64,000 nucleotides of DNA from Pseudomonadota bacterium (GCA_034211135.1 JAXHVK010000001.1:9675-73674); one strand, 5' to 3'. Shown: positions 21,973-22,228, counted from the first letter of the stretch. The notes: generated by a model from the sequence alone, not told the origin. Numbers and translations: made by a program.

Positions 21973-22015
21973 GCACCCGTAGCTCAGCTGGATAGAGCGC
22001 TGCCCTCCGAAGGCG
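21973..22015 (+). pseudogene. 5' half of tRNA-Arg(CCG), truncated; probable attachment-site scar
   Basis: 41/43 nt identical to the tRNA at 22152; has the acceptor 5' strand, D-arm and anticodon arm but no T-arm or CCA. Confidence 0.85.
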
Positions 22016-22151
22016 GATGTCAAGTCTGGCGATTGTTGCAGGTGTTGGACGAAAGAATTGACTAAACAACGGTTTGAGCGGATGTCGGGTTCGCTCTTTA
22101 GGCCGACGAAAATCTCGCGTAAGCATGGCGTAAGCACTTCGCGAACGGTAT

Positions 22152-22228
22152 GCACCCGTAGCTCAGCTGGATAGAGCGTCGCCCTCCGAAGGCGAAGGCC
22201 ACAGGTTCGAATCCTGTCGGGTGCGCCA
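22152..22228 (+). tRNA. tRNA-Arg(CCG)
   Basis: 77-nt cloverleaf: GCACCCG/CGGGTGC acceptor stem, TCGCC-CTCCGAA-GGCGA anticodon arm (CCG at 22186-22188), ACAGG-TTCGAAT-CCTGT T-arm, encoded CCA. Confidence 0.97.

Follow-up and report, generated by a model that had tools for sequence, protein, structure and literature searches.

Why should the broken 5' half of a tRNA-Arg gene lie immediately upstream of a complete tRNA-Arg gene that has a different anticodon stem? This arrangement occupies positions 21973-22228 of the window, the whole 64-kb stretch of DNA analysed here, which corresponds to C1:9675-73674 of a draft assembly (277 contigs, 92% complete, 2.9% estimated contamination); the whole assembly was searched with the tRNA. 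Two readings were offered in the original prediction: either integration of a conjugative element (ICE) split the host tRNA at the anticodon arm and the ICE supplied a whole replacement, or the complete tRNA is a normal attL and the half-copy is an older scar. The evidence leaves us highly confident that a 57.5-kb ICE split tRNA-Arg(CCG) at the anticodon loop without rebuilding it, and that it carries a complete replacement gene.

Both the broken 5' half and the complete tRNA-Arg were recovered where they had been placed, by ARAGORN, Rfam and direct reading:

21973-22014 (+): 5' half of the native tRNA-Arg(CCG), comprising the acceptor 5' strand, D arm, stem strand CTGCC, loop CTCCGAA and GGC (Rfam, direct reading, joined cloverleaf)
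22152-22228 (+): complete, ICE-borne tRNA-Arg(CCG), with anticodon stem TCGCC/GGCGA, T stem ACAGG/CCTGT, A20, G73 and encoded CCA (ARAGORN, Rfam)

The complete gene is the single tRNA called by ARAGORN in the 64-kb window; it is 77 nt long and scores 71.9 bits in Rfam. The half-copy gives a weak tRNA match of 31 bits (21973-22046), above the Rfam gathering threshold. By direct reading, its 42 nt correspond to tRNA positions 1-42 and are identical to the complete gene outside the anticodon stem; tRNA similarity stops past GGC(GG), and beyond CTCCGAAGGC the half-copy diverges into GGATGTCAAG... A 43-nt match between the half and the whole gene has an E value of 1.8e-13 against the 3.1-Mb genome and is not due to chance. 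The stem was described as covarying and the complete gene as something other than a simple copy of the half, and the CTGCC strand of the half, set against the TCGCC/GGCGA stem of the complete gene, bears this out. The distance from the end of the half to the complete gene is 137 nt (22015-22151) when counted from the core defined below, or the 136 bp originally given if the next G is assigned to the half. The 9-bp repeat GCGGATGTC does start at 22013 and 22078, the only two exact occurrences in the 64-kb window; this count alone is within chance (2 observed vs 1.33 expected), while both copies fall inside the att arm, within 74 bp, and some members of the ICE family retain the second copy. The first cargo ORF, noted as beginning 8 bp after the CCA of the complete tRNA, proved to be a beta-lactamase-family serine hydrolase gene on the minus strand (22237-23490), which ends at that distance.

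The 3' half of the split gene had been expected beyond position 64000 of the window, and a search of the assembly located it there, about 57.5 kb downstream of the 5' half:

22005-22014 (+): attL copy of the 10-bp core CTCCGAAGGC (anticodon loop plus 3 nt of stem), crossover site
C1:89215-89224, window-equivalent 79541-79550, outside the window: attR copy of the core CTCCGAAGGC, an identical 10-mer
C1:89215-89259, outside the window: 45-nt 3' fragment, from the anticodon loop to the CCA

The 5' half and the 3' fragment overlap by exactly 10 bp, the core CTCCGAAGGC, which is the sole identity between attL and attR. The anticodon-stem strand of the 3' fragment, GGCAG, is the perfect complement of CTGCC in the half and pairs poorly with TCGCC of the complete gene (C28 opposite A42). 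The T stems also differ by a compensated pair (AGAGG/CCTCT in the 3' fragment vs ACAGG/CCTGT in the complete gene). When the halves are joined at the core (half plus C1:89225-89259), they form a 77-nt gene that ARAGORN recognizes as tRNA-Arg(CCG), with a perfect cloverleaf, and that is identical at 77/77 positions to an intact gene in at least nine relatives of the same genus or order (G002, G006, G012, G021, G023, G029, G031, G039 and G040). The complete ICE gene differs from this native gene by three compensated base-pair swaps.

An empty site is available in G006, a member of the same genus, in which the intact CTGCC/GGCAG gene lies between orthologues of both flanks of the ICE: on the left, MmcB-like, fatty-acid hydroxylase, 145-aa and 606-aa proteins (60-73% identity), and on the right, a diacylglycerol-kinase-like protein (57% identity). 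There is no upstream half-copy at the G006 site, which has a single gene equivalent to the half plus the fragment. The interval from the tRNA to the diacylglycerol-kinase-like gene is 1.67 kb in G006 (locus L021, G006:C11, 4741-6408) and 228 bp in the studied genome.

These observations bear directly on the second reading, in which the complete tRNA would be an ordinary rebuilt attL (a host 5' part joined to an element 3' part) and the half the scar of an older, unrelated event. Most tRNA-targeting integrases do rebuild their target gene, and an integrase 38% identical to the present one, encoded by an island at the same position in G026, rebuilds it with the full 3' part duplicated at attR. 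The 3' fragment studied here, however, is matched to the stem of the half and cannot pair with that of the complete gene, and the empty site consists of one gene with no half upstream; moreover, the unit of half, conserved spacer and tRNA is found again in unrelated chromosomal contexts (see below), which would not be expected of an old host scar. The second reading is therefore very unlikely. The finding that had been named as fatal to the first reading, a TCGCC/GGCGA tRNA at this locus in relatives lacking the ICE, was looked for, and these relatives have CTGCC/GGCAG instead. The first reading, in which an ICE split the gene at the anticodon arm and supplied a whole tRNA, is upheld by the pairing of the half with the distant fragment, the 77/77 identity of the joined gene and the empty site.

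The element delimited in this way measures 57,536 bp between the cores, and its attachment arms and integrase are arranged as follows:

22015-64000 in the window, continuing to C1:89224 (window-equivalent 79550): ICE body
22015-22151 (+): P' arm, 137 nt, conserved in ICEs at unrelated chromosomal contexts
22013-22021 and 22078-22086: GCGGATGTC in the P' arm region
22118-22125 and 22129-22136: two direct CGTAAGCA repeats in the P' arm, candidate arm-type integrase sites
C1:89064-89087: two direct CGTAAGCA repeats with 11 bp spacing in the P arm, beside the integrase
178 bp between the integrase and the attR core, outside the window: P arm
C1:87711-89036 (-), outside the window: tyrosine integrase, 441 aa, starting 178 bp from the attR core

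The integrase, for which the original prediction had left the serine and tyrosine classes open, lies beside the 3' fragment and is a tyrosine recombinase, with Arm-DNA-bind_3 (E 3e-15) and Phage_integrase (E 3e-17) domains; its sequence shows CRRGE, HVLRH and SKY as candidates for the catalytic R, HxxR and Y motifs. Paired CGTAAGCA repeats around a core are the usual layout of arm-type sites, making them candidate integrase sites, and such a pair is also present in the attR of G032. The arms are relevant to another possible explanation, a tandem duplication in the host, whereby the first of two adjacent tRNA-Arg(CCG) genes decayed and the ICE has nothing to do with the half. Tandem tRNA genes are common in bacteria, but relatives carry just one gene at the corresponding syntenic position, the half breaks exactly at the 10-bp core that it has in common with the distant 3' fragment, and the spacer contains the same arm-type repeats as the integrase-proximal arm, all of which make a host duplication extremely unlikely. 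The complete tRNA is instead borne by the element, as indicated by the identity of the joined fragments to the native gene, the empty site, and the presence of an integrase and of repeats in both att arms.

The gene content of the element comprises a left-end cargo block (22237-26624), a conjugation module (33651-50304, minus strand) and further cargo next to the integrase:

22237-23490 (-): beta-lactamase-family hydrolase, left-end cargo
23569-24189 (+): TetR, left-end cargo
24396-25277 (-): SDR, left-end cargo
25491-26624 (+): LysR, left-end cargo
33651-34847 (-): TrbI
34844-35875 (-): TrbG/CagX
35872-36558 (-): TrbF/VirB8
36555-37841 (-): TrbL
38856-41315 (-): TrbE/VirB4
41914-42897 (-): TrbB
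44481-46559 (-): TraG coupling protein
46513-48315 (-): DUF3363 relaxase
48518-49588 (-): SLT transglycosylase
49585-50304 (-): TraF S26 peptidase
59381-61438 (-): ParB-N-domain protein, ICE backbone (weak match, E 5.5e-5)
C1:75715-87567 (2041-13893 of L001), beyond the window: defence-type cargo adjoining the integrase

All the conjugation-type ORFs scanned match conjugation families (Trb, TraG, relaxase, TraF), and no phage family was matched among the approximately 40 ORFs scanned, so the element does not classify as a temperate phage. Two small ORFs (50423-51069 and 52284-52808), considered with regard to the RdfS excisionase and FseA/QseM control circuit of ICEMlSymR7A-type ICEs, gave no Pfam match. 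Between trbB and traG (43076-43954, minus strand) lies a gene for an RNase_T/DnaQ-like exonuclease with a fused BRCT domain. The defence cargo contains AbiEi/AbiEii, an AAA_21 ATPase and UvrD-like helicase pair (Gabija-like), a DpnII/MboI-like nuclease, a 351-aa protein with a weak Hjc-nuclease match and a 766-aa protein without a Pfam match.

In the mechanism that we propose, the tyrosine integrase recombined two sites, the attP core CTCCGAAGGC and the anticodon loop of the native host tRNA-Arg(CCG). The element-side DNA next to the core encodes no 3' part of a tRNA, and the reaction therefore leaves two non-functional fragments, the 5' half staying at attL (21973-22014) and the 3' fragment at attR, 57.5 kb downstream. 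Decoding of CGG would be maintained by the complete tRNA of the element, 137 nt inside attL and in the same direction as the broken gene. As the core is common to attL and attR, precise excision would restore the native gene. The predicted order at attP is integrase arm, CTCCGAAGGC, GGATGTCAA..., tRNA. The exact attP junction, CCAGCTCCGAAGGCKGATGTCAA, had no match in metagenome contigs. A contiguous arrangement in the predicted order (integrase, P arm, core, P' arm, tRNA-Arg(CCG)) is present in the finished chromosome of Stappia sp. NZ_OZ245833.1 (L051), with an integrase at 6022-4787 (minus strand) that is 51% identical to the present one, a junction at 6193 and no tRNA 5' half upstream; it probably marks where two ICEs of a tandem array meet internally. 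Nine more loci (L041, L049, L056, L059, L066, L079, L099, L113 and L114) have no recognizable 5' half.

The layout is not peculiar to one genome. Four genomes of the order (G000, G029, G032 and G037) have a 5' half, a conserved arm of about 137 nt and a complete tRNA-Arg(CCG), with unrelated left flanks; G032 has its 3' fragment at a distance of 45 kb, beside an integrase 84% identical to the present one and a homologous arm, and similarity ends at the CCA. Searches with the attL junction motif CCTCCGAAGGC[G/T]GATGTCAA gave matches in 13 of 401 genomes of the order (about 3%), from 13 genera, and none with the reversed control; the whole half-arm-tRNA unit is present in 11 of these 13 genomes. 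Among prokaryotes as a whole, represented by one genome per species, the motif was found in at least 119 species-level records, and those with names are nearly all from Alphaproteobacteria; the groups among the matches listed include Rhodobacterales, Hyphomicrobiales, Sphingomonadales, Caulobacterales, Kordiimonas and Acetobacteraceae. At 69 of the 81 junctions (80 loci) among the matches listed, a complete tRNA-Arg(CCG) is situated 124-316 bp further downstream, and almost all of the remaining 12 are interrupted by the end of a contig or locus. The junction was also seen in two metagenome-assembled genomes labelled Verrucomicrobiae and Phycisphaerales (L059 and L102), for which mis-binned contigs are more likely than transfer between phyla.

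Finished or isolate genomes also carry the unit, for example the complete chromosome of Parasphingorhabdus sp. DH2-15, Breoghania corrubedonensis DSM 23382 and Roseibium marinum DSM 17023. That these strains have an identical junction and arrangement, together with the synteny of both C1 host flanks with G006, count against an artefact of assembly or binning, that is, a chimeric contig joined through a repeated tRNA segment in a metagenome-type draft. Such drafts do invite this suspicion, given the 277 contigs and 2.9% estimated contamination, and a second contig, C23, ends exactly at a 5' half; an artefact is almost certainly not the explanation for the C1 locus.

How closely does this ICE resemble elements already described? 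In tRNA-dependent lysogeny, reported for actinobacteriophages (Fionnbharth, Cluster L and others), a tyrosine integrase uses an attB site in a tRNA gene; the core, of about 10 bp, is too short to restore that gene, and lysogens depend for their survival on a phage tRNA of the same isotype (Guerrero-Bustamante and Hatfull, mBio 2024, PMC10865867). The present ICE resembles these phages in having a tyrosine integrase with an arm-binding domain, pairs of arm-type sites flanking the core, an attB overlapping a tRNA, about 10 bp of identity between attP and attB, and no rebuilding. It differs from them in being conjugative, in its alphaproteobacterial host and tRNA-Arg(CCG) target, and in the position of its replacement tRNA, which is immediately next to attP (124-316 bp) and co-oriented with the broken gene. 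Experiments have shown that the phages need their tRNA, whereas we infer such a need for the present ICE. All the sequence-level features of the tRNA-dependent lysogeny principle are found in the ICE.

Among conjugative elements, ICEs of the ICEPmu1/ICEMh1 type from Pasteurellaceae integrate in tRNA-Leu and carry an intact tRNA-Leu, and their integrases are XerD-like proteins of 30-36 kDa (Beker et al., Front Microbiol 2018, PMC6028734). They also reside inside a tRNA gene and their layout is analogous, but they do not belong to the same family as the present ICE: their target is tRNA-Leu, their hosts are Gammaproteobacteria and their integrases are smaller, whereas both the target and the carried gene are tRNA-Arg(CCG) here. 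The backbone of the present ICE, with its Trb T4SS, TraG, DUF3363-type relaxase, TraF and SLT, is like that of ICEMlSymR7A-type ICEs. A survey of Mesorhizobium described ICEs 'adjacent to' tRNA-Arg, without describing a layout of split gene plus replacement (Colombi et al., Microb Genom 2021, PMC8627217). A Mesorhizobium sediminum record contains the junction motif, preceded by sequence that is not recognizable as a tRNA 5' half. ICEMlSymR7A itself restores its target, tRNA-Phe, by means of a short 3' duplication and has its integrase gene next to the tRNA. The present ICE, by contrast, leaves its target broken, has its integrase at the opposite end by the 3' fragment, and carries a whole tRNA.

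Islands that target tRNA genes have been sorted into integrase sublocation classes, reportedly by Williams in Nucleic Acids Res in 2002. As in classical anticodon-loop islands, the crossover in the present ICE is in the anticodon loop, with the stem flanking it as an inverted repeat; the arm of classical islands encodes the whole 3' part of the tRNA, so that the gene is rebuilt at attL, whereas the arm of the present ICE does not. A classical 12-kb island occupies the same tRNA in G026 (L028, G026:C1:366000-383000), where the gene is rebuilt. In this locus, the tRNA lies at 2871-2947, the 38%-identical integrase at 14775-13474 and the displaced 3' fragment at 14952-15000; the part of the tRNA duplicated at attR extends from the anticodon stem to the CCA, and the arms have several GGGCTACAGC repeats where the present ICE has CGTAAGCA. 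An evolutionary route from a rebuilding arm to the present one is plausible, given that this related integrase, at the same position, rebuilds its target. An acceptor-complementary motif, AGGTG(C/T), lies in register in one P' arm subfamily, with a mean of 3.55 pairs vs 1.4-2.9 in 16 shifted registers, and this hints faintly at descent of the P' arm from a classical rebuilding arm. Over the whole P' arm, identity to a real tRNA 3' half is no better in register than in shifted registers, and the half plus the arm scores only 31 bits in Rfam, with a mismatched acceptor and no T loop; the arm is not a tRNA 3' half. A route from rebuilding to disruption fits one that has been discussed for phages (Guerrero-Bustamante and Hatfull, mBio 2024, PMC10865867).

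Is the carried tRNA functional, and does the host depend on it? The 69 ICE-borne tRNA genes represent 21 distinct sequences, in each of which all 21 stem pairs are canonical, with both-sided (compensatory) changes at 11 of the 21 pairs; the anticodon loop and A20 are likewise retained, as is a purine at position 73. This conservation of stem pairs and loop reads as the signature of a tRNA under selection. CGG accounts for 18.5% of the Arg codons in the flanking host genes. The number of tRNA-Arg(CCG) genes, a count that the original prediction had proposed, is two in the assembly, each adjoined by a 5' half; the draft (277 contigs, 92% complete) contains no intact native copy, although the genome may have one outside the assembled contigs. 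The only other Arg tRNA called by ARAGORN in the assembly has the anticodon ACG, and a tRNA-Arg(ACG) is not expected to read CGG. Given the frequency of CGG, the lack of an intact native copy in the assembly and the anticodon of the other Arg tRNA, the element tRNA is very probably required for viability while the ICE is integrated. Host dependence would be limited to the integrated state, and loss of the left end of the ICE by deletion would be lethal.

The means by which the carried gene is expressed may involve the host. A consensus scan of 21700-22400 gave two promoter-like matches, including one upstream of the split gene:

21889-21918 (+): TTGCCT-18-CATAAT, resembling a promoter, some 55 bp upstream of the split tRNA (consensus match only)

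In the same scan, the spacer was free of promoter-like sites, and nothing resembling a terminator separated the half from the complete tRNA. The site at 21889-21918 is a candidate for the host tRNA promoter and may also drive the ICE tRNA; with no promoter-like or terminator-like site in between, the ICE tRNA may be read from a captured host promoter.

The second ICE-borne tRNA-Arg(CCG) of the assembly is on contig C23 (L002, 1-26873), which carries another ICE, related to the one on C1 (62% identity for TraG and 40% for the relaxase). The 5' half lies at 4-44, at the contig edge, with A7 and T26, and the complete tRNA-Arg(CCG), with a TCGGC/GCCGA stem, at 236-312; the arm past the core differs from that of the C1 ICE, reading CTCCGAAGG and then TTGCAAGG... 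The attR and integrase of this ICE are not in the assembly. The C23 half may come from a second native copy, from the tRNA of another ICE or from a mis-binned contig.

ICE-borne tRNAs can themselves be targets. Roseovarius conchicola (L104, NZ_JBGEHK010000001.1) has two attL-type junctions 179 bp apart (4405-4424 and 4584-4603, minus strand), in the order host 5' half, arm, split ICE-type tRNA 5' half (TCGGC), arm, complete tRNA (CCGCC); this order indicates that the tRNA of a first ICE served as attB for a second. The anticodon stems of ICE tRNAs are TCGCC, CCGCC, CCACC, TCGGC or CTACC and rarely the native CTGCC, which is found in 4 of 69 element tRNAs vs 49 of 69 host halves. Several stem types are targeted, since host halves with CCGCC, TCGCC, TCGGC, TTGCC and CCACC stems exist, and these varied halves, together with the split TCGGC tRNA in Roseovarius conchicola, indicate that the integrase tolerates stem variation. 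The idea that the stem difference protects the ICE tRNA from its own integrase was mostly rejected: the element tRNA and host half have the same stem in 4 of 69 cases, with about 5.4 expected from the marginals.

It is conceivable, although we consider it rather doubtful, that the ICE tRNA is more than a spare part, in any of three ways. Since the tRNA lies directly on the downstream side of attP and points in the direction of the target gene, integration may place it behind the host promoter and couple its expression to the integrated state. The ICE tRNA may act as a portable attB for the stacking of further ICEs (cf. Roseovarius conchicola and C23). A distinct ICE lineage of tRNA-Arg(CCG) may, finally, take over CGG decoding from the native gene in integrant hosts across Alphaproteobacteria.

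The principle of breaking a tRNA gene and replacing it is already published for other elements and is not new: the strategy is known experimentally in mycobacteriophages and has been remarked on for ICEs of Pasteurellaceae. A large Trb-type ICE family that extends across Alphaproteobacteria and includes culturable hosts is seen here to use it as its standard design. For annotation, this means that the sole tRNA-Arg(CCG) of such genomes is mobile DNA, that the true left end will be lost when islands are delimited from 'tRNA to direct repeat', and that half-tRNAs risk being miscalled as genes. The tRNAs carried by these ICEs form a lineage of their own, kept by compensated changes, and can be landing sites for further elements.
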